A stretch of DNA of 64,000 bases from Candidatus Schekmanbacteria bacterium (GTDB taxonomy: Bacteria; SZUA-182): contig JACRJN010000131.1 of NCBI GenBank assembly GCA_016235675.1, forward strand, positions 1,779 to 65,778, read 5' to 3'. The translations under genes and the position numbers were made by a program. The notes under the pieces were generated by a model, which ran no database searches, had not been told where the DNA came from, and saw only the letters and a program-made list of their open reading frames with translations. This document shows positions 8,046 through 64,000 of the stretch, piece by piece (position 1 is the first letter of the stretch; every line of letters begins with the position of its first letter).

Positions 8046-8305
8046 GGTAGCGTTCTCAATAAGAGACCTAAAGCGTCAAAAGCGAGGCAGCCTTATCGCC
8101 GAAGCAATCTCATGTGCACGCATGGAGATTGCTTCGCTTCGCTCGCAATGACGCTTCAGGTCTGCGGTATTTCTACGCTACCAATAATTTTACACTAAAC
8201 AGTCATGCTCCTTCAGAACGACACAAAACATGAAAACATTCCCCCCTGCCGTAGTGCCGGGGCTTTAGCCCCGGTAGTTCAGCCCTGAAGGGCTGGAACT
8301 ACGAA
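8046..8305. repeat. Composite intergenic element: family D long hairpin (GTCATTGCGAG../GAAGCAATCTC) plus a family B'-like GTAG element
   Basis: 'gcgtcattgcgag..gaagcaatctc-loop-gagattgcttc..ctcgcaatgacgc' is flanked by 'ggtagcgttctc'/'tctacgctacc'. It is followed by 'gtagtgccggggctttagccccggtagttcagccctgaagggctggaactacg'. Confidence 0.8.
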
Positions 8306-8335
8306 ACTACGAAACACAAACAGGCATTTAGCCTT

Positions 8336-14339: not shown

Positions 14340-14618
14340 GGGGGAAAGAAAAGAGCGGGAACTTTAATATTGCCCTACGTCCGGTAGCACAGGTATCTTG
14401 CCTGTGTCATGGTCTTTCGGCTTGTCCTCAAGCCGAAAGACCCAAAAAATGTAGTCCCGTGGCTTTAGCCACGCAATTTCAGCCTTAAGCTGAGACTAAA
14501 GACACGTTCATCCGGAAACACCTGAACTTATACTGAACCGGGTTAACCATTTGTGAGTCGTGATTGCATGGCTTTATGCCATGAAGATCAGCCCTGAAGG
14601 GCTTTAGACTACGATATT
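14340..14618. repeat. Cluster of family C and family B-like GTAG hairpin elements
   Basis: 'ggtagcacaggtatcttgcctgtg', 'gtagtcccgtggctttagccacg' and 'cagccctgaagggctttagactacg' are visible in this span. Confidence 0.7.
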
Positions 14619-14624
14619 TTAGGT

Positions 14625-15962
14625 TTAAAATCTCTGTTTATGGGTTTCTTGAGTATAAAAAGAAAACAGCGGTTTTTTGATCCGTCTTCTTAATCTTTTC
14701 AAATAGGTTAAATCGGTTTGGTAATCGGGATGTTTTATTCTTGCTTCAATATCCACCGCTTGTTCCAAAAGCGAAACGGCCTCTTTTAGTCGGCCCTGCT
14801 TTTCCAGAATGATGCTTAGATTGAACTCGGTTACCGCTTCAACAGCTAAGTTACCGATTTCCTTCCAGATTTTCAAGCTTTCCTGATAATATTGGATAGC
14901 CTGATCGTATTTGCCCCAATAGCGGAAAATAGCCCCTAAATTAATCAGGGTCGTCCCTTCGCCTTGCCGATCGCCGGTTTCCCGGTGAATTTTCAGGCTT
15001 TCCCGATAATATTGGATGGCCTGGTCATAATCGCCAGATGAATCGTATATCGCCCCTATATTATTCAGGGTTGCGCCCTCCCCCTGGCGATAACCGATCC
15101 CTCTCCAGACTTTCAGGCTGTGGTGATAATATTTAACGGCCTGCTCAGGCTTTCCCCATGAATCATAAATGGCGCCGATATTATTCAAGGTGATCCCCGC
15201 TCCCTGCCGGTCTTTGATTTTCTTCAATATGTTCAGACTCTCCCGCAGATAATAAATCGCTTGCTCATATTGGCCCCACGAGTCGTATATTGCGCCCAGA
15301 TTGGATAAAACCGCCCCCTCGCAGCAGTAATCCTCACATTCCCGGCTGACTTTCCAGCTATCCTGGAAATATTGGATTGCCAGATCGTATCGGCCCCAGG
15401 AGTGGTAAATCATGCCGACGGCATTCAGTATTTGCCCTTCCATTTTTTTATCTTGTTGTTTTAGCGCTAATTTGAGCGCGATATCGCAATTTTCCAGGGC
15501 GGGTATATATTGGGACAGATGATAATAGGCGTTGCCTAAAGCAAAATAAAAACTGCGACATTTTACCTTATCAGCCGCCTGCTGAAAATGATTGACCGCT
15601 GTCTTGAAATCACGCTGTCGATAACTCTCCATTCCCGTCAGATATTGGTTTTCCGCTTCAGTCACGGCTTGCAGAAACCCGGCTTTAGCGGCTCTCAACT
15701 CTTTCTTTAATTTCCCGGACGACGGCAGGGAAAGCAGTTCCCGTTCCTGCAAGACCTTTACCGCGATTTCGGTTTGCTGCGTGGATTCTTGTTTGACCTG
15801 CTCTTGCCCGGCCTTTTTAGCGGATTTTATTTTAAGCTGTTGGAAAAGTTTTCCGGCAAGGAATGCAGCAATTATACATAACCCGGCTGATAAGCTTATG
15901 TAAGTTATGGATATTAATAGCCGTATAATATCTGCAAAATTTTCCGCATAATAATTGACCAT
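14625..15962 (-). CDS. Membrane-anchored TPR-repeat protein
   Basis: An N-terminal TM helix is followed by about 8 TPR units with a recurring 'IYDSWG' motif. Confidence 0.65.
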   Translation of the reverse strand: MVNYYAENFADIIRLLISITYISLSAGLCIIAAFLAGKLFQQLKIKSAKKAGQEQVKQESTQQTEIAVKVLQERELLSLPSSGKLKKELRAAKAGFLQAVTEAENQYLTGMESYRQRDFKTAVNHFQQAADKVKCRSFYFALGNAYYHLSQYIPALENCDIALKLALKQQDKKMEGQILNAVGMIYHSWGRYDLAIQYFQDSWKVSRECEDYCCEGAVLSNLGAIYDSWGQYEQAIYYLRESLNILKKIKDRQGAGITLNNIGAIYDSWGKPEQAVKYYHHSLKVWRGIGYRQGEGATLNNIGAIYDSSGDYDQAIQYYRESLKIHRETGDRQGEGTTLINLGAIFRYWGKYDQAIQYYQESLKIWKEIGNLAVEAVTEFNLSIILEKQGRLKEAVSLLEQAVDIEARIKHPDYQTDLTYLKRLRRRIKKPLFSFYTQETHKQRF

Positions 15963-16115: not shown

Positions 16116-16237
16116 TAATCATATATAAAATGATTAAGCATATATGATACTTTATATGGGAAGAAAAAAGAAGAGGATAAATGGGTGAAAGGATGAAACA
16201 GTATTGATACCAATTCGCTATCGAACATTGAAGAATA

Positions 16238-16335
16238 ATTCGTAGCACGGGGGTTTATCCCCCGTTTGCAGCGCCTGCTTACGGGAGATGAACTCCCGCG
16301 CTACATTAATCTTTGATAGCGAATTGGTATGAGTT
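16238..16335. repeat. Family H element (GTAGCG + GGGGTTTATCCCC / GGGGGATAAACCCCC hairpins)
   Basis: Related copies occur at 19150..19258 and 43470..43562. Confidence 0.75.
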
Positions 16336-18923
16336 TAAATAACAATATTAACCAGCTTTCCGCCGGCAACTATTACCTTGCGGATTGGCTTGCCTTGGAT
16401 AAATTCCCGGATGCGGGCATCTGATAAGGCGGATTGTTTGATCGTCTCTTCCCCCGCGTCTTTAGGCAGGTTGATCTTGCTGCGTAATTTGCCGTTAATC
16501 TGGATGACGACGGTGACCTCATCCTCGCTGGCGATGGCTTCATCGTAAACCGGCCAGGGCTGCTGGCTGATACTGGCGGGATAGCCCAATGTCCGCCACA
16601 ATTCCTCGCTGATATGGGGGGCGAAGGGGGCAAGCAGTAATAACACACTGCGTAAAGCCTCCTTCAAGACTAAATAAGCCTCATCATCCTTCGGTTCGAA
16701 CTGATAGAGGGTGTTGACCAGTTCCATCACGGCGCTGATGGCGGTGTTGAAGTGGAAGCGGTCTTCGATGTCCCGGCCTACCTTGCGGATGGTTTGATGC
16801 ACCCGGCAGCGCAATTGTTTGTTGGCCGGGGTCAACTGGACGGGAATCAGATCATTGCCGATCGCCGTCAATTTTTCACCTGAAGATGTCGTAGCGCAGG
16901 GCTTTAGCCCTGCCTCCCCGGTAGCAGACCTAAAGGTCTGCGCTACATGTTTATTGTTCTTGGTATCCCGAAGAGACATAGGTGTTTCGGCATAGGTATT
17001 GACCAGCCGCCAGACCCGTTGCAGGAAGCGGTAAGAGCCTTCCACCCCTTCCTCGCTCCAATCCAAATCCTTTTCCGGCGGGGCGGCAAACAAGGAAAAG
17101 AGGCGCGCCGTGTCTGCTCCGTACTTTTCCAGCAAATCATTGGGATCAACTACATTACCCTTGGATTTGCTCATCTTCGCCCCATCCTTGATAACCATGC
17201 CTTGAGTAAGCAGGTTAGTGAAGGGTTCGTCATAAGTCAAGTAGCCCAAATCACGCAAAACTTTGTTGAAAAAGCGGGCATAAAGTAAGTGCAGCACGGC
17301 ATGTTCGATCCCGCCCACATATTGATCCACCGGCAGCCAGTAATTGACCGCTTTTTCATCAAAAGCGGCATTAGTTAACCGGGGAGATGTGTAGCGGGCA
17401 AAGTACCAGGAGGATTCGACAAAGGTATCCAGGGTATCGGTCTCCCGTTTAGCCGGTTTACCGCAGGCCGGACAGTCGGTATTGACGAATTCGGCGATCG
17501 AAGGCAAAGGGGAATGGCCGTCTTCGGGAAATGCCGTATGGGTGGGCAGAACTATCGGTAACCGTTCCGCTTGCTCCGGAACGGTTCCGCAAGCATCGCA
17601 ATAAACTATCGGAATGGGCGCACCCCAGAAGCGCTGGCGGGAGATGCCCCAATCGCGCAGACGATAATTGACCTTACGGCAGCCGATCTCGGCCTTCTCC
17701 ATAAAATCGGCGATCGCTTCGCGGGCTTGTGGGCTGGTCAGGCCACTAAATTGACCGCTGTTGACCAGATTGCCATCGTCTACATAGGCTTCGGTCATTG
17801 TTTCCGCTTGCAATGCACCATCAGTGGGTTGAATTACCACCCGCAAGGGGATATTGTACTTGCGGGCGAATTCAAAATCCCGCTGGTCATGAGTGGGCAC
17901 AGCCATAACCGCCCCGGTGCCGTAACCCATCAGGACGAAGTTAGCCAGATAGACCGGAATATACTCCTGGGTCATCGGATTGAGGACGTAGCAGCCGCAG
18001 AATATGCCCTCCTTTTCCGGCTCCGCCTGACCGCGCTGCTGTACCCGGTGGCTTTTCTTGAAATTCTCCACAAAGATTTGTAACGTTTCAGGATTTGGGC
18101 AATGCTGTCTGATTATGTCCACTAAAGGGTGTTCGGGGGAAATGGAAACAAAGGTAGCGCCGAAAATAGTATCGACACGGGTGGTAAAGACGGTCAGCGA
18201 TTCGCCTAAGCCTTTGAGTGGAAACTTGATCTCCATCCCCTGGCTTTTGCCGATCCAGTTGCGCTGCATCATTAATACCTTTTCCGGCCAGCCGGGTAGC
18301 TGATCAGTAAACTTGAGCAGTTCGTCGGCATAGGCGGTGATGCGGAAAAACCAGCTTTCCATCGCCCGCGGCTCAACCACACTGGAACAGCGCCAGCACA
18401 AGCCCTCCTCCACCTGCTCGTTAGCCAGAACGGTCTGGCAGGAAGGGCACCAGTTGACCGGGGAAAGCTTTTTGTAGACCAACCCCTTCTCATACATCTG
18501 CAAGAAGAATTGCTGCTCCCAGCGGTAATAATCCGGCAGACAAGTCGCCAATTCCCTATGCCAGTCGTAGCTATAACCCATTCGTTTCAATTGACCGCGC
18601 ATATAATCGATATTGCTTGCCGTCCATTTGGCCGGATGGCTCTTATGGGCAATGGCCGCATTCTCCGCCGGCAGCCCGAAAGCGTCCCACCCCATCGGAT
18701 GCAGAACGTTAAAGCCCTTCATCCTCTTGTAACGGGCGATCACATCCCCGATCGAGTAATTACGCACATGCCCCATATGAATCCGCCCGGAGGGATAGGG
18801 AAACATCTCCAATAAGTAGTATTTGGGAAGATTAGGGTCTTCCGTCACCCGGAAAATCCGCTCCCTCTCCCAATACTCCTGCCATTTGGCCTCGATTTCT
18901 TTATGCTGATAATGCTGATTCAT
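16335..18923 (-). CDS. leuS: Leucine--tRNA ligase
   Basis: 862 aa with HMGH ('HMGHVRNY') and KMSKS motifs. It contains an in-frame family A repeat at 16876..16951. Confidence 0.95.
16876..16951. repeat. Family A REPIN-like element embedded in-frame in leuS
   Basis: 'gtagcgcagggctttagccctgcctccccggtagcagacctaaaggtctgcgctac' lies inside the leuS reading frame. It is translated as '..[21 protein letters not shown]..'. Confidence 0.85.
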
Positions 18924-21589: not shown

Positions 21590-21828
21590 TATTAAGACGT
21601 AGCGCAGGGCTTTAGCCCCAATACTGTTCCCCTAACGTAGCGCAGACCTTTAGGTCTGCTCCGGAGTGCTCACAAAGCCACCCCATAAGCAGGGATAGAA
21701 GCCCTGCGCTACGTCTTAAGTGAACGGTATTGGCTTTAGCCCTGCTTCCGGACACACATCAAACCCGGTAGCCGGTAGCAGACCTAAAGGTCTGCACTAC
21801 GTTAGGGGAACAGTAAAGGGGCGGCTAT
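21590..21828. repeat. Two interleaved family A REPIN-like elements
   Basis: The GTAGCGCAGGGCTTTAGCCC / GCAGACCTTTAGGTCTGC units are repeated twice with CTTAAGTGAACAG outer repeats. Confidence 0.8.
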
Positions 21829-25115: not shown

Positions 25116-25173
25116 TGTAGTTACCTGATTTATCAGGTACGACCCGTGGTACCCGATAAATCGGGTAACTACA
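25116..25173. repeat. Family I REPIN-like element
   Basis: This is a near-identical copy of the element at 5328..5387. Confidence 0.85.
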
Positions 25174-25181
25174 ATTACCCA

Positions 25182-26936
25182 TCACCCTTTTCTCCAAATA
25201 GCATAATCATTGATGACTAATAAATCAAGCTTTGATTTTAATAAAACGTCAACAGCCTGATCGCTGTTTTCCACAATGGGGTGACCGTGCAAATTAAATG
25301 AGGTATTCAGCACACAGGGAATCCCGGTCTTTTGGTAAAAGCCCTCGACAATCTGATAGAAATCCGGATAGCGCTCTTTGGTCACCGTCTCAGCACGGGC
25401 GGTAAAATCGGACTGATGCAGGGCGCAGGCGATACTCTCCCTTTGGTCTTCCACGGTTTCGAAGGCAAACATCATATACGGCGATCCTTGAGATTTTAAA
25501 GCGTTGGGAATCCTGATCAATTGCCCGGCTTTGTCCCATAACATCGCCGGAGCAAAGGGCATCCAGAAATCCCGGTTCTTTATCGCCCGGTTGATTTTGC
25601 CCACCACATTTAAATTGGAAGGGTTAGCCAGAATGGATCGATTTCCCAGCGCTCTTGCGCCGAATTCCATCGGCCCGGAACAGCGCGCCACAATCTTGCC
25701 GGCAACCAATTGCCCGACAATGTAAGCGTTGATGTCCTTGATTCGCTCGTATTCGATCTGCCCCCGGTATTTTTCTAAAACCGCGGGCAAATCCCCGCCG
25801 ATAACAGACCCCAGGCAATAGGATTTTAAATTGTCCACCTTTTTTTCTATATGGGTGTTGTACAGATAAAACCCGGCGCCGAACACATTGGATTCATCCC
25901 CGCAGGAAGGGAAAACATCGATGTATTCCACCTCCGGCATCTGAGACAAAAGCATATTGGTCTTGACGTTCATAAAAACACCGCCGCTGCACAGAATTTT
26001 CCCGACCCCGTATTTTTTGATCGCCCCCCGAATCCAGGCGCCGAGAATCTCCTCGGTAAAGGCTTGCAGACCGGCAGCCACATTATCAAAACGCGCCCTT
26101 TTCAAATCATTTAACAAATGGCGCATGAAAATTTCATGATATAACAATTTGGAATTTTCAAAGCGGGTATCGTCGTCGGCCAGTTTGAGAAACTGGCTGA
26201 AATACTTTTTATATTTGTCTTGATGTTTTTTGTCAACATAAGGAGCCAAACCCATTAATTTATATTCATGTTCGTGAGGGGTAAAACCCAGATGATGGGT
26301 CACCGCCGAATACATATTCCCGATCGAATAGCAAGGAGAGCTTGACAACAACTGCAAGTTTCCGCCCTGCCCCAGATACAGCGCGCTGGTATAGCGATCC
26401 CCGCCGCCGTCTAAGGTAAACACCAGGTACTTTTCATCCAGATGCCTGGCCAGTCCGTAATAAGCCGCCGAGGCATGGCACAAATGGTGCTCGACGCGCT
26501 CGATTCTGTCCGGCCTAAACCCCAGGTGCGCCAAATAATCCAAATCTTTTTCTTTGCCGCGGTTAATTTGCTGACGCGAGCGCAGATAGACCCCGAACAG
26601 GAAATCGCTGGACTTGATATTTTTTCTTAGCTCATTGCGTACTCTGGTGATATTGATCGGATTGCCGCAAGCCCGCCGATAATGCCGCTCATAGTTATTG
26701 TAAAAGGTGGTGCGGTTCAGCTCCCGATAAATGGCGTTAGCAATACCGACATATTCCACCTCAGATGGCCGGACGATTCCGTTTTTGATGATATAATCCA
26801 GCGCTTTATAGGGGAAGCCCATCCAGTTTTTGGTTCTAATCAGACGCTCCTCTTCCATACAAAACACCGGTTTGCCGTTCTGAAAAACCCCCAGCGAACT
26901 GCCTAACCCCGAATTTATGGTCACTATTGTGCTCAT
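25182..26936 (-). CDS. Carbamoyltransferase (NodU/CmcH family)
   Basis: About 584 aa with an N-terminal Kae1/HypF-like ASKHA fold. The ATG at 26936 is preferred over the tracked TTG at 26951. Confidence 0.7.
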   Translation of the reverse strand: MSTIVTINSGLGSSLGVFQNGKPVFCMEEERLIRTKNWMGFPYKALDYIIKNGIVRPSEVEYVGIANAIYRELNRTTFYNNYERHYRRACGNPINITRVRNELRKNIKSSDFLFGVYLRSRQQINRGKEKDLDYLAHLGFRPDRIERVEHHLCHASAAYYGLARHLDEKYLVFTLDGGGDRYTSALYLGQGGNLQLLSSSPCYSIGNMYSAVTHHLGFTPHEHEYKLMGLAPYVDKKHQDKYKKYFSQFLKLADDDTRFENSKLLYHEIFMRHLLNDLKRARFDNVAAGLQAFTEEILGAWIRGAIKKYGVGKILCSGGVFMNVKTNMLLSQMPEVEYIDVFPSCGDESNVFGAGFYLYNTHIEKKVDNLKSYCLGSVIGGDLPAVLEKYRGQIEYERIKDINAYIVGQLVAGKIVARCSGPMEFGARALGNRSILANPSNLNVVGKINRAIKNRDFWMPFAPAMLWDKAGQLIRIPNALKSQGSPYMMFAFETVEDQRESIACALHQSDFTARAETVTKERYPDFYQIVEGFYQKTGIPCVLNTSFNLHGHPIVENSDQAVDVLLKSKLDLLVINDYAIWRKG

Positions 26937-26945
26937 GCCTTCTCC

Positions 26946-27051
26946 TGACAATAAACCCCACCTTGAATTTCGTAGTCCCAGCCCTTCAGGGCTGATCTTC
27001 CAGGGCTAAAGCCCTGGCACTACGGCTACGGCAGGAATGTTTGGTGGTATC
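26946..27051. repeat. Family B REPIN-like element flanked by a 47-bp direct duplication (26899..26945 and 27052..27098)
   Basis: The core is 'cgtagtcccagcccttcagggctgatcttccagggctaaagccctggcactacg'. The flanking copies differ at 2 positions. Confidence 0.8.
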
Positions 27052-27085
27052 CTGCCTAACCCCGAATTTATGGCCACTATCGTGC

Positions 27086-28216
27086 TCATGCCTTCTCCAA
27101 TACCTGTATATACAACTCTTGGGTAGTTTTCAGCATCTGCCGCAGGGAAAACCGCTCTTCGATAATTCTTCTCCCGCGCTTTCCAAAAGCCTCCGCCAGA
27201 TTCTTATCCGCTAACACCCGGTTAATCGCCGCAACCAGCGGCTCAGGCTGATTGGAGGGGACTAAAAACCCGCTGACACCGTCTTCAACCAATTCAGAGC
27301 AGCCGCCGACGTTAGTTGCGACTACCGGCTTTCGGGCGGCCATCGCCTCCATGATCGCACCCGGCAGACCCTCGGAGATTGAGGTAAGCACCAGAACATC
27401 GAAAACCTGCAAAATCCGGGGGATGTCATCCCGCGTACCCAGAAAGAAAAAACGATCCCTTAGGGAAAAATCCTTCAGCCAGCCGGCCTTGGCGGTCTGA
27501 TCCAAACCCTGGCCGGCCAGGACAAAACAGAGATGCTCTTTTTGAGCGGCTAAAATTTTGGCGGCCTGAATAAATAAGGGAATGTTCTTGGCCACAGCAT
27601 CCCGGCTGATTATTCCCACTACCTGAGAATCCGACGGCAAGCCCAACTGCGCCTTAATTATTCCCCTGTCTTCGGTCAATTTAAACAGGTCTGGATCGAT
27701 CCCGTTAAAAATAGTTATAATCTTGCTTTCATCCAACCCAAGATTATCGACCAGGTAATCCTTTAAATCCAGGGAATTGACCATGACGATCGCTGCTGAA
27801 TTAAGTGCTAGGGTATCGAAAAATTTTCTTAAAGCCGAGGGACTTTTCCGATAGCCCAGCACCGAGGGGATAAAAGCCTTGATGCCCGCAAGCTTACAGG
27901 CAAAATAGCTGTACACGACAGCAATATACAACAGGGCATGAACGATTTGAATTTTTTCTTTTTTAAAGAGCCAGGCCAGTTTAAATAAGCGGATTAAATC
28001 GAAGTTGGATTTTCTTTTAAAGGTATAGACCTTGATCCCCTGCTTCGTCAGCTTTTCCCCGTAAGGGTAATCCTTCTCCGACAGGCAAAACACTGTGGGA
28101 TTAAACCGGGTGCGATCCAGGCGAATCACCATTTCATATAGCTGCTGCTTTTCCGCCCCGCCCCAGGATAACTGCCCGATGACGAGCGCCAGATTTATCG
28201 GTTGATCTATTTGCAT
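27086..28216 (-). CDS. Glycosyltransferase family 4
   Basis: GT-B fold with an 'EGLPGAIMEAMA' motif. Confidence 0.8.
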   Translation of the reverse strand: MQIDQPINLALVIGQLSWGGAEKQQLYEMVIRLDRTRFNPTVFCLSEKDYPYGEKLTKQGIKVYTFKRKSNFDLIRLFKLAWLFKKEKIQIVHALLYIAVVYSYFACKLAGIKAFIPSVLGYRKSPSALRKFFDTLALNSAAIVMVNSLDLKDYLVDNLGLDESKIITIFNGIDPDLFKLTEDRGIIKAQLGLPSDSQVVGIISRDAVAKNIPLFIQAAKILAAQKEHLCFVLAGQGLDQTAKAGWLKDFSLRDRFFFLGTRDDIPRILQVFDVLVLTSISEGLPGAIMEAMAARKPVVATNVGGCSELVEDGVSGFLVPSNQPEPLVAAINRVLADKNLAEAFGKRGRRIIEERFSLRQMLKTTQELYIQVLEKA

Positions 28217-28231
28217 GTTTATTTTTTTGTA

Positions 28232-28434
28232 TTTGGTAGCACAGGCTTCTAGCCTGTGATATCATTTTCTGGTTGTCATTCCCGAATGACTTTATCGGGA
28301 ATCCAGTTCTAAAGTTCTAATTGCTTGAAAAGCCATATCCCCGATAAAGACATTCGGGGATGACAGAGTGCCTTCTCAACCAGAAAATGATATGACCTGT
28401 GATGCACAGGCTAGAAGCCTGTGCTACCATACCA
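28232..28434. repeat. Nested element: family C inverted arms (GGTAGCACAGGCTTCTAGCCTGTG) enclosing a family G element
   Basis: Arms at 28232..28272 and 28390..28434 are reverse complements, with the family G copy at 28262..28372 between them. Confidence 0.8.
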
Positions 28435-42540: not shown

Positions 42541-42700
42541 TTTTGTTGTCAGTTGTCAGTTGTCGGTTTTAATTCTTTAACTGACAACCGACAACTGACA
42601 ACTTTTTTTCATCACCAGCCGTAGTCCCAGCCCTTTAGGGCTGAATTTCCGGGGCTAAAGCCCCGGCACTACGGCTACGGCTACGGCTGACAATCGCCTG
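42541..42700. repeat. TGTCAGTTGTC heptamer-array hairpin followed by a family B GTAG element
   Basis: 'ttttgttgtcagttgtcagttgtcgg..ccgacaactgacaact' is followed by 'cgtagtcccagccctttagggctgaatttccggggctaaagccccggcactacggctacgg'. Confidence 0.8.
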
Positions 42701-42705
42701 TACCG

Positions 42706-43446
42706 TCAGCCGCTTTTCTTCTCCATCACCAGCTTAAAAGCGCTTCTGGTAAAAAATGCACCATACCGGTTGGCTAAAATCTTTTCAAAGCTTTTTAATT
42801 TCGCCGGAACCAACCAATCTACCCGCGGGTTAGTGTAGCCGCATTGCTTCAGCAGTTCGATCCAAAGATCGGGCGTTTGATGCTTATGCCATTCAATCGT
42901 AGAGGATAGAGGGTTTTTCATTCCCAGTGTGTCGAAGAAATTATAGGGAGAACAGTCCAGGATTACAATTTTCCCGCCATTTTTGGTAATGCCGCTTAAT
43001 TTAGTGAAGATGGACAGGTATTTTTCCCGCGCCGCCCGGCTGGTTCTTAATCCGACACAGGCTTTCTCATCTAAATGATTGATGGAACTGTGCGATAAAA
43101 TCAGATCGAACGAAAGCCCGTTGGGTGCAAATTCCTGCAAGGTTTGCGGATAGCAAACGATATTCGCTAATTTAAGGGCCGCGGCCATTTTGTTGAATAC
43201 CGCGGCGGAACTGCTGCTGCTCCCGGCCTCTTCCGGCTCAAGACCGATGACCTGCGCCGCTCCCCGGCAGGCACTGTAAATGCTCATCAATCCCGTCCCG
43301 CAACCGATGTCCAGGATGTTTTTGTCTGCAAGATCGACGCCGTCTAAAAAGCGGTCGATATACCCTTGCGCCAAAGCCGGTGTTTTAAATCCGATTTCCT
43401 GCACCGCTAAAGATAAAAAATGATCTGTTAATGTTTGGCTGGTCAA
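42706..43446 (-). CDS. Class I SAM-dependent methyltransferase
   Basis: 'ILDIGCGTGL' is motif I. Confidence 0.7.
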   Translation of the reverse strand: MTSQTLTDHFLSLAVQEIGFKTPALAQGYIDRFLDGVDLADKNILDIGCGTGLMSIYSACRGAAQVIGLEPEEAGSSSSSAAVFNKMAAALKLANIVCYPQTLQEFAPNGLSFDLILSHSSINHLDEKACVGLRTSRAAREKYLSIFTKLSGITKNGGKIVILDCSPYNFFDTLGMKNPLSSTIEWHKHQTPDLWIELLKQCGYTNPRVDWLVPAKLKSFEKILANRYGAFFTRSAFKLVMEKKSG

Positions 43447-51375: not shown

Positions 51376-51692
51376 CCACGAAGGCCACAAAGCACACGAA
51401 GAAAAAATTTCGAGAGTGTTCACCTAAAGATAGATATTTATATATTTAAAAACGTAGTCCCGTGGCTTTAGCCGCGTATTTTCAGCCCCTTAGGGCTGCA
51501 AAAAAAGGTGTGTTCGTATGGAACGCGCCGAAAGTATTGAGAGTCATAATTGCAGGGCTAACGCCCTGAAGTTCAGCCCTGAAGGGCTGGGACTACGATA
51601 TTACTGGGACTACGATATTATATTGATGTTTTGGCCAATCCCCAGGCCGAAAAATTTCTTCGTGCTCTTCGTGTGCTTCGTGGTTGGTAATT
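51376..51692. repeat. Family E composite (CACGAAG heptamer arrays flanking family B GTAG hairpins)
   Basis: 'ccacgaaggccacaaagcacacgaagaaaaa' at 51376 is mirrored by 'ttcttcgtgctcttcgtgtgcttcgtgg' at 51658. Inner hairpins are 'gtagtcccgtggctttagccgcg' and 'cagccctgaagggctgggactacg'. Confidence 0.8.
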
Positions 51693-55320: not shown

Positions 55321-55385
55321 CAATGGACAATTGACAGTTTTTCGTTATCCATTATCCACTATCCACTATCCACTATCCATTGAAT
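55308..55385. repeat. GACAATTGACAATGGACAATTGACAG + CCATTATCCACTATCCACTATCC 7-bp-periodic repeat
   Basis: Tandem heptamers are directly visible. Related words occur at 41083..41100 and 61505..61545. Confidence 0.7.
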
Positions 55386-55399
55386 TAACAACAATATTT

Positions 55400-57136
55400 A
55401 TGTCCATAAACAAACCTAAAAATTGGGATTTTTACCCCCCGAATCCCGAATTGCAAAAGAAACTCCAATCGGAATTAGGGATAAAATCCCGATTGGCCGA
55501 TCTGATGATCAACCGCGGCATCGAAACCGTCGCCGACGCCGGGATTTTTTTATGGGGGACTTTAGCGGAATTACACAGCCCATTTATCATGAAAGGGATG
55601 ACCACCGCCGCCGGAATCATTCTTAACGCCGTCCGGCAAAAAGATAAAATCTGTGTTTACGGGGATTACGACGTCGATGGATTAACCGGTGTGGCTTTGC
55701 TGTTCAAAACCCTGAGTTCGCTCCAGGCCGACGTGATCTTTTACATCCCCCACCGGCTGGAAGAAGGTTACAGCCTGAATTGTCAGGCGCTGGACGAGAT
55801 CAAAAACGCCTCCGTCAATTTAATCGTAACCGTGGACTGCGGCATCACCTCCTGCAACGAAGTCAATTACGCCAATAAATTGGGGATGCAGGTAATTATC
55901 AGCGACCATCATCAATTGGGAAATAATCTGCCTGCCGCCGCGGCCATTCTCAATCCCTTACAACCCGGATGTCCCTATCCTTTTAAAAAACTGTCCGGCG
56001 TAGGTATTGCCTTGAAATTAGCGCAGGCCATATTGGCGCAATCCGGTTTAATCCGCGAGGCGGCTGATCTTTTAAATAATGATTTGGACCTGGTAGCCCT
56101 GGGAACAATAGCCGATATGGTACCTTTAATGGGGGAAAACAGGATTTTAGTAAAATATGGTCTTAAACAATTGACAAATTCCTCCAAATCAGGTATAAAA
56201 GCATTAAAGCAGGTTACAGGTCTGGCTATTGACCAGGAAGTTAGCGTAGTAGACGTAGCATATAAGCTAGCCCCCCGGTTAAATGCCACCGGCAGAATGA
56301 GCGACCCTCAGCAGGGGTTGGAACTGCTGGTATCCAATAACGACACTGAAAGCGCTAATCTGGCTAAGCAAATAGAAGAAAACAATGTTCAGCGCAAAGC
56401 TATCGAAGGGATAATCCTGGAACAAGCCAGGACGCAATTGCAGCAAGCTATCGAGAACAACGCTCCGCCAAAAGCGATTATTTTAGCGGCCGAGGGCTGG
56501 CATATCGGCGTAATCGGAATCGTCGCCTCCCGCATAGTGGAAGAGTATTTCCGCCCGACGATCATTATCGGGCTTACATCGGGTGTCGGCAAAGGTTCAG
56601 GCCGAAGTATCCGTAACTTGCACCTGCAGCAAGTTTTATTGAAATGTCAGGATTTACTGCTGGAGTTCGGCGGCCATGAAATGGCGGCGGGCTTGAGTAT
56701 TCTGGAAGAAAATATACCCCGGTTCAAAGAGCGCATCAATCAACTGGTGGAAGATTCTTTACAGGAAAACGACTTTATACCCAGCTATAATCTGGACGGC
56801 GTGGTGGAATTAAAAGAGCTGACCTTGTCGTTTTGGCAGGAAATACAATTAATGGAGCCGTTCGGCATAGGCAATCCGGCGCCGTTATATTGTGCACGCC
56901 ATTTAGAAATAATGCCGCCGCTGCGCTTAGTGGGCAATAACCATTTAAAATTGAAGCTCAGGCAAAACGACCTGACTATGGAAGCCATCGGTTTTAATAT
57001 GGGAGATTGGCTCTCATTTTTAAATACTCCGGGCAATAAATCGATAGATGTGATTTTCCGCCCCCAGTTGAATGTCTGGCAAGGCAAAGAGCAATTGCAA
57101 TTGTCCCTGCAGGACATAGTGCAGACCAGGGATTAA
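55400..57136 (+). CDS. recJ: Single-stranded-DNA-specific exonuclease RecJ
   Basis: DHH motifs 'YGDYDVDG' and 'DHH', followed by DHHA1 and OB-fold domains. Confidence 0.85.
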   Translation: MSINKPKNWDFYPPNPELQKKLQSELGIKSRLADLMINRGIETVADAGIFLWGTLAELHSPFIMKGMTTAAGIILNAVRQKDKICVYGDYDVDGLTGVALLFKTLSSLQADVIFYIPHRLEEGYSLNCQALDEIKNASVNLIVTVDCGITSCNEVNYANKLGMQVIISDHHQLGNNLPAAAAILNPLQPGCPYPFKKLSGVGIALKLAQAILAQSGLIREAADLLNNDLDLVALGTIADMVPLMGENRILVKYGLKQLTNSSKSGIKALKQVTGLAIDQEVSVVDVAYKLAPRLNATGRMSDPQQGLELLVSNNDTESANLAKQIEENNVQRKAIEGIILEQARTQLQQAIENNAPPKAIILAAEGWHIGVIGIVASRIVEEYFRPTIIIGLTSGVGKGSGRSIRNLHLQQVLLKCQDLLLEFGGHEMAAGLSILEENIPRFKERINQLVEDSLQENDFIPSYNLDGVVELKELTLSFWQEIQLMEPFGIGNPAPLYCARHLEIMPPLRLVGNNHLKLKLRQNDLTMEAIGFNMGDWLSFLNTPGNKSIDVIFRPQLNVWQGKEQLQLSLQDIVQTRD

Positions 57137-57265
57137 GGTTCACTTAAGACGTAGCGCAGGGCTTTAGCCCTGCTTATGGCGGCTTTGGTAGGCACTCCGG
57201 AGCAGACCTAAAGGTCTGCTCTACGTTAAGTGAACAGTCTGCGCTACGTTAAGTGAACAGTATTG
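57137..57265. repeat. Family A REPIN-like element with a duplicated right end
   Basis: 'cttaagacgtagcgcagggctttagccctgc..gcagacctaaaggtctgctctacgttaagtgaacag' is followed by a second 'gcgctacgttaagtgaacag'. Confidence 0.8.
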
Positions 57266-57288
57266 GGATTAAGGAGGGGTTTGGGGGA

Positions 57289-59814: not shown

Positions 59815-60062
59815 GGCGGGGGTTTCCCCCAATGCTGTTGACTTAAGACGTAGCGCAGGGCTTTAGCCCTGCTTAAGACGCGGCATTTGACCCCTGTGGC
59901 TGTAGCAGACCTAAAGGTCTGCGCTACATAAACATCAAAACAAAATTCCTTAAGTCAACAGCATTGGGGGTTTCCCCGCCCTTTAATTAACTTAAGCCGT
60001 AGCCGTAGTGCCAGGGCTTTAGCCCTGGAAATTCAGCCCTAAAGGGCTTTAGACTACGAAAT
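59815..60062. repeat. Family A element nested within a CAATGCTGTTGACTTAAG inverted pair, followed by a family B element
   Basis: Outer 'gggggtttcccccaatgctgttgacttaag' is mirrored by 'cttaagtcaacagcattgggggtttcccc'. The family B copy lies at 59995..60062. Confidence 0.8.
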
Positions 60063-60521: not shown

Positions 60522-61490
60522 ATGAAAATAATCTTTTGTGGCACGCCGGAATTTGCCCTCCCCAGCTTAAATACCCTACTGACGTCCAAACATCAGGTTT
60601 TGGCGGTGATTACCCCACCCGATCGCCCCGCAGGCCGGGGTAAAAAGCTCAAACCCTCTGCAATTAAGGAAGCCGCCTCAACTCATAATTTACCCATCTT
60701 GCAGCCGGGAAAAATCGGATCGGCGGATTCGCTGGAAAGCATGCGGCAATTGAATCCCGACGCCTTGGCAGTTGTCGCCTTCGGACAACTTCTCCCCCCC
60801 CCGGTACTGAATTTACCCCGCTACGGATGCATCAATGTCCATGCCTCCCTGCTTCCCAAATACCGGGGAGCGGCTCCCATCAATTGGGCGATCATCCGGG
60901 GGGAAACCCAAACCGGGGTCTGCACCATGCGGCTGGATAAAGGGATGGACACCGGCGATGTTATCTTATGCAAGGCTGTCGATATTAGGTCGGAGGAAAC
61001 CGCCGGAACATTACACGACAAGCTGGCCCCGCTGGGCGCGCAATTATTAGCGGAAACATTGGATCAGATCGAAGCGAATACCGCGCTTTATCATCCTCAA
61101 GACCATAACTCGGCCACCTATGCGCCGCTCTTGGATAAATCGATTACCATCATCGACTGGAAACAAAGCGCCGAACAAATCGACTGCCTGGTGCGCGGGT
61201 TAAATCCCTATCCCGGAGCAAAAACATTTTTGGACGATCTGCCGCTGAAAATTCTTACGGTGGAAATCAGCAAGCTAGCTAGCCCGGCCCTACCGGGACA
61301 AATAATTCAGCAAAATCGACGGCAGGGAATTTTAGTCGCGACAGGCAGCGCTCCCATTTGGCTGAAAACAATTCAGCCGGCCAACCGCCAGCCTATGACC
61401 AGTGGCGATTTTCTTTCCGGATTGCGTGAGTCTTTAATAAATAAGGAATTCCGTAGTCCCAGCCCTTTAGGGCTGAATCTCCAGGGCTAA
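60522..61490 (+). CDS. fmt: Methionyl-tRNA formyltransferase
   Basis: 'MKIIFCGTPEFALPSL' and 'HASLLPKYRGAAPI' are Fmt motifs. The last 12 codons and the stop are provided by the family B repeat. Confidence 0.9.
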   Translation: MKIIFCGTPEFALPSLNTLLTSKHQVLAVITPPDRPAGRGKKLKPSAIKEAASTHNLPILQPGKIGSADSLESMRQLNPDALAVVAFGQLLPPPVLNLPRYGCINVHASLLPKYRGAAPINWAIIRGETQTGVCTMRLDKGMDTGDVILCKAVDIRSEETAGTLHDKLAPLGAQLLAETLDQIEANTALYHPQDHNSATYAPLLDKSITIIDWKQSAEQIDCLVRGLNPYPGAKTFLDDLPLKILTVEISKLASPALPGQIIQQNRRQGILVATGSAPIWLKTIQPANRQPMTSGDFLSGLRESLINKEFRSPSPLGLNLQG

Positions 61491-61512
61491 AGCCCTGGCA
61501 CTACGACTGACA
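61455..61512. repeat. Family B REPIN-like element overlapping the fmt 3' end
   Basis: 'cgtagtcccagccctttagggctgaatctccagggctaaagccctggcactacg'. Confidence 0.85.
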
Positions 61513-62165: not shown

Positions 62166-62226
62166 AACGTAGTCTAAAGCCCTTTAGGGCTGAACCTCCA
62201 GGGCTAAAGCCCCGGCACTATGGTAG
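62166..62226. repeat. Family B REPIN-like element
   Basis: 'cgtagtctaaagccctttagggctgaacctccagggctaaagccccggcactatgg'. Confidence 0.8.
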
Positions 62227-63059: not shown

Positions 63060-64000
63060 ATGAAAAAAATGGGTATTAAAGTAAATTCTGCATTAATTTG
63101 CCTATTTCTGGCTGTTTTCGGCATTTTACCCCCCCCATCGTCATTTGCATCTTCATTGGCAGGCCCGCCCCCAAGTACGGAAGAATTGGCGCAAAAAGCC
63201 GATTTACTCGTGATCGGTCGTGCAACCTCAAAAGAGGCGGAATGGGATGAACAACATAATACAATCAATACATACTATCGCATTGAAGTAGAACAAATTA
63301 TCAAAGGGAAAGTTGTCCCCGATCTTGTCGTCAGATACGAAGGGGGAGAAGCGGAAGGAATGGGTACGTGGCGTTCCGATGTTAATCCGGATATATTGAA
63401 AATCGGTGACCAGGTAATTCTTTTTTTGCAGCCTGACAACCAGTACCCGTATTCTGTAACAGGTGGGGAAAATCAGTATATTAGCATTAAAAACCATAGG
63501 GTTGATTTCGGGAAGATATCTGAATTAGATCGATGGGTGGGTCAAAGAGAGGAACAAACGGTGGAGCAGTTTGTTCAAAATATCAGGGAGCGTTTGGAAC
63601 TGCCGTCTCCGATTTATATAACTCCCGCTCCTTCTAAAGAAAGACCTCAGCCCACTCCAAAGGAGCCGCCTCAGTCCGCTCAAACATCCGGGACAGCTCC
63701 CGCTGAAAAAAAAGAGGAGCTGCCTCAGTCCGCTCAAACATCCGGTACGGCTCCCGCTGAAAAAAGAGCGCAGCCGCCTTCCCCCGCTCAGAGAATGCTC
63801 ATCCCTAAGCAAGACAAATCGGATCATTTAATTCCGGATAGTCATAAGAAATTAGCTCCTTCTCCCCAAATAAGCATTAGTTCTGGTTTGCCTAACTTAA
63901 AGGCTTATGTACCCAGCGGTTGGGGGAGCGCATTGGTTGTCTCTTCGGTTTCCGGCACAAGCTATGACGGGCCTAACCTTAATAATTGTAATAACACTTA
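63060..64000 (+). CDS. Hypothetical secreted protein with proline/threonine-rich tandem repeats (3' end beyond the window)
   Basis: An ATG at 63060 follows a GGAAGGAGAG RBS. An uninterrupted frame of more than 310 codons runs to the window edge and is absent from the ORF track because it has no stop. It has a signal peptide 'MKKMGIKVNSALICLFLAVFGIL' and a tandem 'PQSAQTSGTAPAEKK' repeat. Confidence 0.6.
   Translation, partial: MKKMGIKVNSALICLFLAVFGILPPPSSFASSLAGPPPSTEELAQKADLLVIGRATSKEAEWDEQHNTINTYYRIEVEQIIKGKVVPDLVVRYEGGEAEGMGTWRSDVNPDILKIGDQVILFLQPDNQYPYSVTGGENQYISIKNHRVDFGKISELDRWVGQREEQTVEQFVQNIRERLELPSPIYITPAPSKERPQPTPKEPPQSAQTSGTAPAEKKEELPQSAQTSGTAPAEKRAQPPSPAQRMLIPKQDKSDHLIPDSHKKLAPSPQISISSGLPNLKAYVPSGWGSALVVSSVSGTSYDGPNLNNCNNT

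Follow-up and report, generated by a model that had tools for sequence, protein, structure and literature searches.

The window analysed here is a 64-kb stretch of DNA, from one contig of a metagenome-assembled genome (MAG) of the uncultured Candidatus Schekmanbacteria, obtained as a short-read metagenome bin. Two minus-strand genes meet in the region of interest, a GT4-family glycosyltransferase gene (GT4) and a carbamoyltransferase gene of the NodU/CmcH type, with the domains Carbam_trans_N and Carbam_trans_C. The MAG proteins are MBI5789085.1 and MBI5789086.1 (locus tag HZA78_09550), and the NCBI annotation gives an identical 584-aa carbamoyltransferase product. Both flanking genes are sugar-polymer genes. 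GT4 ends with ..YIQVLEKA and a TGA at 27088-27086, and its C-terminus stops at the same point as in its homologues. The carbamoyltransferase ORF covers 25182-26951 (-), with the ATG at 26936-26934 and a GGAG just before it, at 26945-26942. The first 12 residues of the enzyme are kept among homologues (MSLILAINSG..). A direct repeat was found where the two genes meet, with a short insert between its copies (Table 1).

Table 1. Position of the genes, repeats and REP elements discussed in the text (window coordinates)
Feature	Position	Strand	Remark
Carbamoyltransferase gene	25182-26936	-	584 aa; start within copy 1
Direct repeat, copy 1	26899-26945	-	carbamoyltransferase working RBS, start codon and codons 1-12 (plus 2 nt)
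Insert between the copies	26946-27051		106 bp
Left spacer TGACAATAAACCCCACCTT	26946-26964		about 15-19 nt; unique in window
Family B REP doublet (REPIN-like)	26965-27032	+	two GTAG-headed inverted hairpins, then CTACGG repeat
Right spacer AGGAATGTTTGGTGGTATC	27033-27051		about 6-19 nt outside the element
Leftover 27-codon frame	27006-27089	-	RBS and ATG, MSTIVAINSGLGRIPPNIPAVAVVPGL, TAG in the loop of the second REP hairpin
Direct repeat, copy 2	27052-27098	-	45/47 identical to copy 1
GT4-family glycosyltransferase gene	27086-28216	-	376 aa; stop codon within copy 2
Other family B copies	8248-8306, 42620-42687, 51545-51598, 59996-60056, 61446-61505, 62170-62222
Diverged family B copy	near 14583-14610

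A duplicated gene junction

The repeated unit is a 47-mer (CTGCC..TCTCC), the two copies of which start 153 bp apart. They differ at two positions, T/C in both cases, at 26921/27074 and 26928/27081. An earlier note on this DNA had described the same pair, and its coordinates and both mismatches were reproduced. No third copy was found in the 64-kb window, even when up to three mismatches were allowed, and the two matches were obtained in none of 100 shuffles. The ends of the 47-mer are sharp, and similarity stops at both edges of either copy.

The two copies serve different genes. On the minus strand, copy 1 reads GGAGAAGGC-ATG-AGC-ACA-ATA-GTG-ACC.. and begins the carbamoyltransferase. The first 13 nt of copy 2 encode the end of GT4 (E-K-A, TGA) and its other 34 nt are a dead 5' end of the carbamoyltransferase gene (MSTIVAINSGLG). 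This agrees with the earlier note, which had assigned the GT4 stop to copy 2 and the carbamoyltransferase RBS and start to copy 1, and the ORF coordinates match. The note had also proposed that the two genes formerly overlapped by ATGA. In-silico removal of 26946-27098, one copy together with the insert, did rebuild this overlap, with an intact ..LEKA-TGA / ATG-AGC.. junction. The reconstructed empty site would read ..GGTATTGGAGAAGGCATGAGCAC(A/G)ATAGTG..GGCAGTTCGCTGG without a break. The claim that the duplication exactly preserves both genes holds in so far as both are intact, but only 13 nt (GGAGAAGGCATGA) needed duplicating and 34 nt are surplus. This surplus pseudo-5' end suggests that the duplication arose mechanically and then passed through selection, and was not tailored. 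Neither mismatch touches the 13 nt that serve a function in both copies; the two lie in the 34 nt without function in copy 2, as would fit an event long past and later drift. Copy 2 created the leftover 27-codon frame, which may be translated. An imperfect palindrome in the 47-mer was rejected as a symmetric target, as its centre lies about 4-5 nt off the repeat centre.

At residue 6, copy 2 encodes the family-typical Ala6 and the working copy 1 encodes Thr6. This difference, and the two mismatches in general, could stem from an incoming copy unlike the resident one, if a larger element with its own 47 bp had integrated in a site-specific or Campbell-type event and had then been mostly deleted, down to 106 bp. 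Gene-restoring repeats of 40-60 bp are typical of integrase-mediated insertion (PMC2853133). However, a Pfam scan of the 50 window ORFs turned up no integrase or recombinase gene or remnant, attachment sites do not usually lie at junctions within a polysaccharide operon, and the remnant shows a REP doublet and nothing more. An origin of the repeats as attachment-site scars is very improbable.

The arrangement was also weighed as an artefact, in which the repeated element would have led to the merging of two loci, or of variants from two strains, in the MAG contig, so that no single molecule would carry the duplication. The source is a short-read metagenome bin, and a difference of two SNPs between the copies is what strain variants would show. 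A Logan contig (SRR12113407), produced by a different assembler, is identical to the window from the GT4 end through copy 2 and the right spacer to halfway along the element. Copy 2 thus really runs into the unique spacer and not into the body of the carbamoyltransferase gene. The copy-2 junction is confirmed by this second assembly; the copy-1 junction was found in the MAG assembly only, and exact look-up of the 584-aa and 589-aa carbamoyltransferase products gave no other contig or assembly. Private bases in this family B copy (GATCTTCC) let assemblers cross it, and even in a chimeric contig the 34-nt stub of the carbamoyltransferase gene downstream of GT4 could be explained only by a duplication. 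There is only a slight chance of an assembly error. Protein searches with both genes returned the source MAG at 100% and the next homologues at 56-59% identity. GT4 and carbamoyltransferase homologues were not adjacent in three of the homologue contigs, and an empty site was not found in these relatives.

The insert and its repeated element

The insert occupies the exact boundary between the copies, and both 47-mers are complete. It contains neither an ORF nor a terminator-like site, matches no Rfam family and gave one weak promoter-like match; a role as terminator, promoter or known RNA was rejected on these grounds. The earlier note had described it as 106 bp containing a family B GTAG element. 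The element is present, but only about 68 bp (26965-27032), and at most about 85 bp, belongs to it. Its hairpins are GTAGTCCCAGCCCTTCAGGGCTG at 26972-26994 (+) and GTAGTGCCAGGGCTTTAGCCCTGG at 27023-27000 (-), and the element folds stably as single-stranded DNA. At least seven copies of the doublet occur in the window, where shuffling predicts none of its core, and the two-hairpin inverted unit is conserved at the six other sites.

The remainder of the insert, outside the repeated element, is unique in the window. Together with the preceding C, the left spacer forms CTGACAAT, a motif that also adjoins two other family B copies. The first part of the right spacer (GGAATGTTT) is also found in the flank of the copy at 8248-8306 and is thus probably part of a longer version of the element; this leaves the last 6-7 nt or so. 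No significant match to the spacers was found on either strand, within 26800-27200 or in the rest of the window, and the 106-bp unit is not repeated as a whole: the only part with further copies in the window is 26965-27032, joined in one of them by GGAATGTTT. Terminal inverted repeats are absent from the insert, the ends of which (TGACAAT.. and ..GGTATC) are not complementary, and pairing between the spacers is limited to an internal 5-bp CCACC/GGTGG stem.

Template switching could leave behind a REP doublet flanked, as here, by unequal lengths of unique DNA that is not part of the element. A nascent strand would have left the junction, copied about 106 nt at another REP locus, that is, a doublet with its donor flanks, and re-annealed 47 nt behind its exit, which would yield duplication and insert in one step and without a transposase. 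The stably folding hairpin element could stall a fork. The second family B copy that may be flanked by a repeat (42602-42733) also has an off-centre spacer, which fits a copied donor stretch better than an element with defined ends. Against such copying, the 64-kb window contains no donor with these flanks (TGACAATAAACCCCACC..REP..TGGTATC; GTTTGGTGGTATC), and no microhomology between insert end and target flank is visible past a single C. Template switching is unlikely.

REP elements in the window and in known systems

The window contains 51 GTAG hairpins in 26 clusters, and REPs are present in about half of its intergenic regions. Doublets are also found at 25117-25172, directly behind the stop codon of the carbamoyltransferase gene, and at 28236-28427, upstream of GT4; REPs have colonised most spacers of this operon. 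A long flanking repeat was found at one of the 26 clusters tested, the GT4/carbamoyltransferase site. Among the seven family B copies, this one has a clear flanking repeat, four or five have none, and the copy at 42602-42733 has a doubtful, gapped repeat of about 21 bp. Most copies of families B, E and F are without flanking duplication. A long duplication is not a general property of the family B element.

This abundance would suit a history of two events, in which the 47-bp junction was duplicated first, as a plain tandem or with a short filler, and a REP doublet colonised the spacer later; the element would then not be the cause of the duplication. The many copies without a duplication suggest that family B may normally insert without one. 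However, the complete 47-mers demand that the later insertion struck the exact boundary, which a random insertion into a tandem duplication would do about once in 35 times, or that the filler was very short. The ends of the 47-mer show no microhomology that could have seeded a slippage duplication. Moreover, another copy of the element has some of the right spacer attached to it, which leaves a possible filler of only about 21 nt. Two separate events are distinctly unlikely.

Family C, another group of REP elements with a GTAG hairpin doublet core, resembles the present site in that the core lies within a direct target duplication. Unlike the family B insert, these MITE-like elements have clear terminal inverted repeats (AATACTGTTCACTTAAGAC..), and their duplications, of 10-12 bp, abut the element ends. 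One family C copy (57129-57274) has, like the present insert, duplicated a junction of stop codon and RBS, in this case the one that separates recJ from a cytochrome gene. At 59818/59966 the true duplication is GGGGGTTTCCCC; the 10-mer pair GGTTTCCCCC at the same site was discarded, as it belongs to another small hairpin.

GTAG-tagged REP doublets are thought to be moved by RAYT / TnpA-REP. REP and IS200/IS605-type (single-strand) movement is expected to proceed without target duplication. The earlier note had measured the site against elements mobilised by a Y1 transposase, which by its account normally make no target duplication. Nothing ties the element to Y1, and the 50 ORFs of the window, scanned with Pfam, include no transposase of any kind (Y1_Tnp among them). 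A sister REP family, family C, leaves exact 11-12-bp duplications in the same window. A cognate RAYT gene was likewise not among the 50 ORFs. The family B copies at 60-62 kb were considered as possible neighbours of a RAYT gene, but the genes they flank encode a formyltransferase and a flavoprotein. A contig search with the second hairpin gave two chance matches. A metagenome scan gave more than 100, nearly all on large GC-rich contigs of one JGI metagenome (Ga0209118); these were rejected as a guide to the ends of family B, since they have just a single REP hairpin (CCGGGGCTAAAGCCCCGGCACTAC) in common with the window.

The GC-rich, GTAG-headed hairpins of the window, paired head-to-head, multicopy and almost always between genes, resemble REP/REPIN elements. 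Many copies of such hairpins, mostly intergenic and with several families per genome, make up the published REP picture (PMC3733652), and the route by which REPs spread is still unknown (PMC8266576). Unlike an expected REP/REPIN, the present copy lies inside a 47-bp duplication and is separated from the repeats by spacers.

Insertion with long target duplication was reportedly described by Nobusato et al. in 2000. The cases of Furuta, Abe and Kobayashi (2010) include repeats of 46 and 47 bp; a translation start or stop often lies within the repeat, and the authors argued that the target gene survives intact for this reason (PMC2853133). The present site is similar in its repeat of more than 30 bp (47 bp) of an otherwise unique target, with two copies in the window, and in an insert without transposase, integrase or terminal inverted repeats. 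It differs in that the published inserts are restriction-modification genes of several kb, proven by an empty site in a sister genome, whereas here a 106-bp non-coding REP insert is found and two genes were rescued together. IS1549/IS1634 produce direct repeats of 8-514 bp, varying by copy (PMC2266710), and share with the present site a duplication far above the usual 2-15 bp. These, however, are elements of 1.5-2 kb with a DDE transposase and terminal inverted repeats. With precedents of 46-47 bp (PMC2853133) and 8-514 bp (PMC2266710), a 47-bp duplication falls within the recorded range, where the earlier note had seen an unusual insertion mechanism or selection for a rare event.

Proposed event and its meaning

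The arrangement of repeats around the insert is real and tidy, and of a known type, with a single instance here. Our tentative explanation, which is quite possible without being assured, is one old event of insertion with long target duplication. Before it, the end of GT4 and the start of the carbamoyltransferase gene would have shared one 47-bp stretch, with TGA and ATG overlapping as ATGA. The target strands would have been broken about 47 nt apart and a non-coding fragment of about 106 bp, the family B doublet with a few flanking nucleotides on each side, joined into the site. Fill-in of the single-stranded gaps would then have left one copy of the 47 bp at either end of the insert. The single step, the staggered breaks and the acting enzyme are what we infer. 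Complete copies and an insert at their exact boundary are as a coupled duplication and insertion predicts.

Most insertions at such a junction would ruin one gene, and this one would have lived on because the duplicated block happens to include the GT4 stop as well as the RBS and the first 12 codons, start codon included, of the carbamoyltransferase gene. GT4 is completed by the upstream copy and the carbamoyltransferase is begun by the downstream one. Conservation of the N-terminus suggests that an insertion without duplication would have wrecked the carbamoyltransferase, and it makes selection for the duplication plausible. In place of a translational overlap there would now be a 150-bp spacer, occupied by a structured repeat and by the dead frame of 27 codons.

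Related REP elements in the window do leave target duplications, which speaks for an insertion with long target duplication; against it, the repeats do not abut the conserved ends of the element. With REPs in about half of the intergenic regions, an element in the spacer argues only weakly that it caused the event. As unique spacers also separate it from the repeats, the element may have come with the event or may have colonised the new spacer later. A broader reading, in which the REP doublets of this lineage spread by a route that duplicates a variable and sometimes long target (10-12 bp in family C, about 21 and 47 bp in family B), is improbable. If it were true, the junction would be a preserved footprint of REP/REPIN insertion, a step never yet observed, and insertions could separate overlapping genes without loss.

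One event in one metagenome bin, of a general phenomenon already published, amounts to a useful annotation note and a survey lead and is not a discovery by itself. Clean insertion footprints of REP/REPIN elements are of some value, because their entry into new sites is still unresolved (PMC8266576). As the site illustrates, a long target duplication can come to enclose a short palindromic repeat. It also suggests how an ATGA-overlapped, probably translationally coupled gene pair may become two genes, each with its own initiation and with a structured spacer between them; on a small scale, it exemplifies the evolution of operon junctions and the origin of intergenic space for repeats.

The 47-bp direct repeat and its flanking genes

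A 47-nt direct repeat was found by reading the window over 26700-27300 and by a repeat finder. The two copies, hereafter copy 1 and copy 2 (see the table), are identical at 45 of 47 positions, their starts are 153 bp apart and the similarity ends sharply on both sides. No further copy was found in the 64-kb window with up to three mismatches allowed, and two 47-mer matches were reached by no shuffle. When the whole window was scanned for local direct repeats, this was the sole long, high-identity, non-tandem pair, and the duplication with two mismatches described in the earlier note is thus real. Both mismatches fall in the 34-nt stretch without function in copy 2, and the 13 nt functional in both copies are identical. 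Because of this placement, the mismatches point to an old event, neither recent nor made by the assembler.

The window is part of a 65.9-kb contig in a metagenome bin of Candidatus Schekmanbacteria. A contig of SRR12113407, obtained with a different assembler, is identical to the window from 28288, in the REP region upstream of the GT4 gene, into the element. It spans GT4, copy 2 and the right spacer, ends inside the element, as expected at a repeat, and confirms the copy-2 junction. Exact look-ups of the carbamoyltransferase product found no independent support for the copy-1 junction. Just upstream of GT4 lies a palindromic unit of ~190 bp (28236-28427), with an inverted pair of family A REPs (GTAGCACAGGCT..) at its ends and a long internal hairpin at 28265-28370. 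Its only Rfam matches, on both strands, were to a microRNA precursor model and below threshold; they are taken to reflect the long hairpin only.

Positions of the repeat, its flanking genes and the elements compared with it
Feature	Position	Strand	Remarks
47-mer, copy 1	26899-26945
Insert	26946-27051		106 bp; conserved core ~26965-27032
47-mer, copy 2	27052-27098
GT4 glycosyltransferase	28216..27086	minus	Upstream gene; 376 aa; identified by its Pfam families; TGA 27088-27086 within copy 2
NodU/CmcH-type carbamoyltransferase	Start ATG 26936-26934, in copy 1	minus	Downstream gene; Carbam_trans_N and Carbam_trans_C; ATG preceded by GGAG (26945-26942)
Family C element	21608-21742		Exact 11-bp duplication GGCTTTAGCCC (21608, 21732) abutting ends
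Family C element	57129-57274		Between recJ (55331-57136) and multihaem cytochrome gene; 10-mer GGGATTAAGG at 57129 and 57265
Family C element	59818-59977		Exact 12-bp duplication GGGGGTTTCCCC (59818, 59966) abutting ends
Family B copy	42620-42687		Gapped ~21-bp repeat, 42602-42619 and 42713-42733

As the earlier note had proposed, copy 2 supplies the stop of GT4 (C-terminus ..QELYIQVLEKA), and copy 1 the ribosome binding site (RBS) and start of the carbamoyltransferase, whose 584-aa product is identical in the NCBI annotation. In-silico deletion of 26946-27098 gave ..GTA TTG GAG AAG GCA TGA overlapping ATG AGC ACA.. with the two frames intact, which recovers the proposed ancestral ATGA overlap. 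Past the GT4 stop, copy 2 holds a dead 34-nt carbamoyltransferase 5' end (MSTIVAINSGLG; the working copy is MSTIVTINSGLG), and copy 1 carries the final 9 nt of GT4 ahead of its ATG. A leftover 27-codon frame from copy 2 has its stop in the loop of the insert's second hairpin.

The next-best homologues of the two proteins were 56-59% identical, and in three of their contigs the two genes are non-adjacent. Carbamoyltransferase homologues begin with MSLILAINSG(I/M)GSS.., and GT4 homologues end at the same position as the protein studied here. Since the first 12 carbamoyltransferase residues are conserved in homologues, insertion at this start without duplication would have inactivated the enzyme. 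A duplication of only 13 nt, from RBS through TGA, was needed to save both genes. Both are indeed intact, and the claim of an exact preservation is weakened by the surplus of 34 nt, which argues for a mechanical duplication that was then passed by selection.

The REP insert and the origin of the duplication

Two inverted GTAG-headed hairpins and a CTACGG repeat make up the contents of the insert, and its conserved core was delimited by alignment with six other copies in the window. Since GGAATGTTT, beyond the core, is shared with one copy (8248-8306), a longer form of the element may reach ~27045. What remains of the insert, its spacers, measures 15-19 nt on the left side (TGACAATAAACCCCACCTT) and 6-19 nt on the right side; both are unique in the window, and no local origin was detectable for either. 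The spacers are not terminal inverted repeats, because the pairing between them is weak and limited to a 5-bp stem (CCACC/GGTGG). No terminator-like site or Rfam match was found in the insert.

Three plus-strand occurrences of the 8-mer CTGACAAT (26945, 42687, 61507) each lie next to a family B copy: two directly after the element and the one at 26945 20 nt before it. One more occurrence is on the opposite strand (55779). The 8-mer could be a target motif or a piece of a longer element form. A metagenome scan for the REP hairpin returned mostly GC-rich contigs of one JGI metagenome (Ga0209118), whose sole similarity to the window is a single hairpin. Its large contigs hold well over 100 copies of a single REP, CCGGGGCTAAAGCCCCGGCACTAC, with the hairpin and GTAG head of the second family B hairpin; this class of REP either is common to such distant lineages or arose in them by convergence.

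Foreign DNA lies exactly between two complete 47-mers, as predicted by a coupled duplication-insertion, in which strand breaks ~47 nt apart would be joined to an incoming fragment and the gaps filled in. Had a plain tandem duplication come first, a later insertion would have hit the boundary of the tandem copies with a chance of only ~1 in 35, and the 47-mer ends show no microhomology as a seed for slippage. Template switching to another REP locus would explain the unequal unique flanks of the insert equally well. The REP may also have colonised a short filler later and not been the cause of the duplication. Because roughly every second intergenic region here carries a REP, the element between the repeats is weak evidence for its causal role in a coupled event.

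Duplications at other GTAG elements

The window holds 51 GTAG hairpins of several families in 26 clusters. Each cluster was analyzed for flank-to-flank direct repeats by gapped local alignment and shuffling, and family B also by ungapped alignment. A clearly significant flanking repeat was observed only for the cluster at 26972. The gapped repeat at another family B copy (p ~0.025) consists of GCTGGTGATG extended by ~8 bases, with a gap of 3 nt. The 3' end of a methyltransferase gene (..KLVMEKKSG, stop 42706) forms its right copy, its left copy would read ..LVMKKS.., and a unique 25-nt spacer is present on one side only, off-centre as at the main site. It is a possible second long duplication, not an established one. 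Families E and F were without duplications, and long duplication is the rule for no REP family in the window. The reading that insertion of REP doublets here brings duplications of variable and sometimes great length is supported by a single clear case and a doubtful second one, both of family B, and is unlikely.

The earlier note had regarded the insert as Y1-mobilised and normally duplication-free. This premise falls, since some of the genome's GTAG elements duplicate their target. A scan of 50 ORFs in the window gave no transposase or integrase domain. Family C elements have terminal inverted repeats (AATACTGTTCACTTAAGAC.. / ..GTTAAGTGAACAGTATT), and two copies have exact duplications of 11 and 12 bp, the first sitting in the hairpin of another REP and the second in a GGGGCGGGGGTTTCCCCGCCC hairpin. 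They behave like MITEs, with target site duplications (TSDs) and a preference for palindromic targets. In the copy next to recJ, the left 10-mer carries the recJ stop TAA and the right one the RBS of the next gene (TAAGGAGG), a gene-saving outcome like that at the main site, at ordinary TSD length. The left inverted repeat of this copy is truncated, and its right end recurs in a 23-bp tandem duplication (57214-57259).

Several other repeats were observed. A GTAG REP doublet (GTAGCGCAGGGC.. / GTAGCGCAGACC..) at 16891-16946 looks like an in-frame intragenic insertion in the unbroken leucyl-tRNA synthetase frame (862 aa, 16335-18923, minus strand). A family F doublet (16242-16304) is centred in a perfect 16-bp inverted repeat (ATACCAATTCGCTATC .. 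GATAGCGAATTGGTAT; 16207-16330) and is thus a REP doublet within a larger palindrome. A heptamer-repeat hairpin, (TTGTCAG)n .. (CTGACAA)n, at 42543-42601 lies immediately upstream of the start (42540) of the exosortase EpsH gene and has ATGAAAAA on either side. A 54-bp tandem duplication, 93% identical, lies at 63661-63768, close to the window end, and the 120-nt periodic repeats at 14854-15453, within a TPR-repeat gene (14625-15962), are probably ordinary protein repeats.

Relation to described insertions

GTAG REPs are known to form doublets, to be nested in larger palindromes and to lie beside or within genes (PMC3733652), and how REPs spread is still an open question (PMC8266576). For IS1549/IS1634, De Palmenaer et al. 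reported repeats of 8-514 bp, without a mechanistic model (PMC2266710). Furuta, Abe and Kobayashi described 'insertion with long target duplication', with cases including 46-bp and 47-bp repeats, which in many cases include the start or stop of translation and leave the target gene intact (PMC2853133). The 47-bp duplication, taken in the earlier note to imply an unusual mechanism or a rare selected event, is real, the interpretation given in that note holds in part, and a class with repeats of this length was already described. The present case resembles that class in its repeat length and in the gene ends spanned, and is unusual in its tiny non-coding REP insert and in the rescue of two genes together; it is a further example of the described class.
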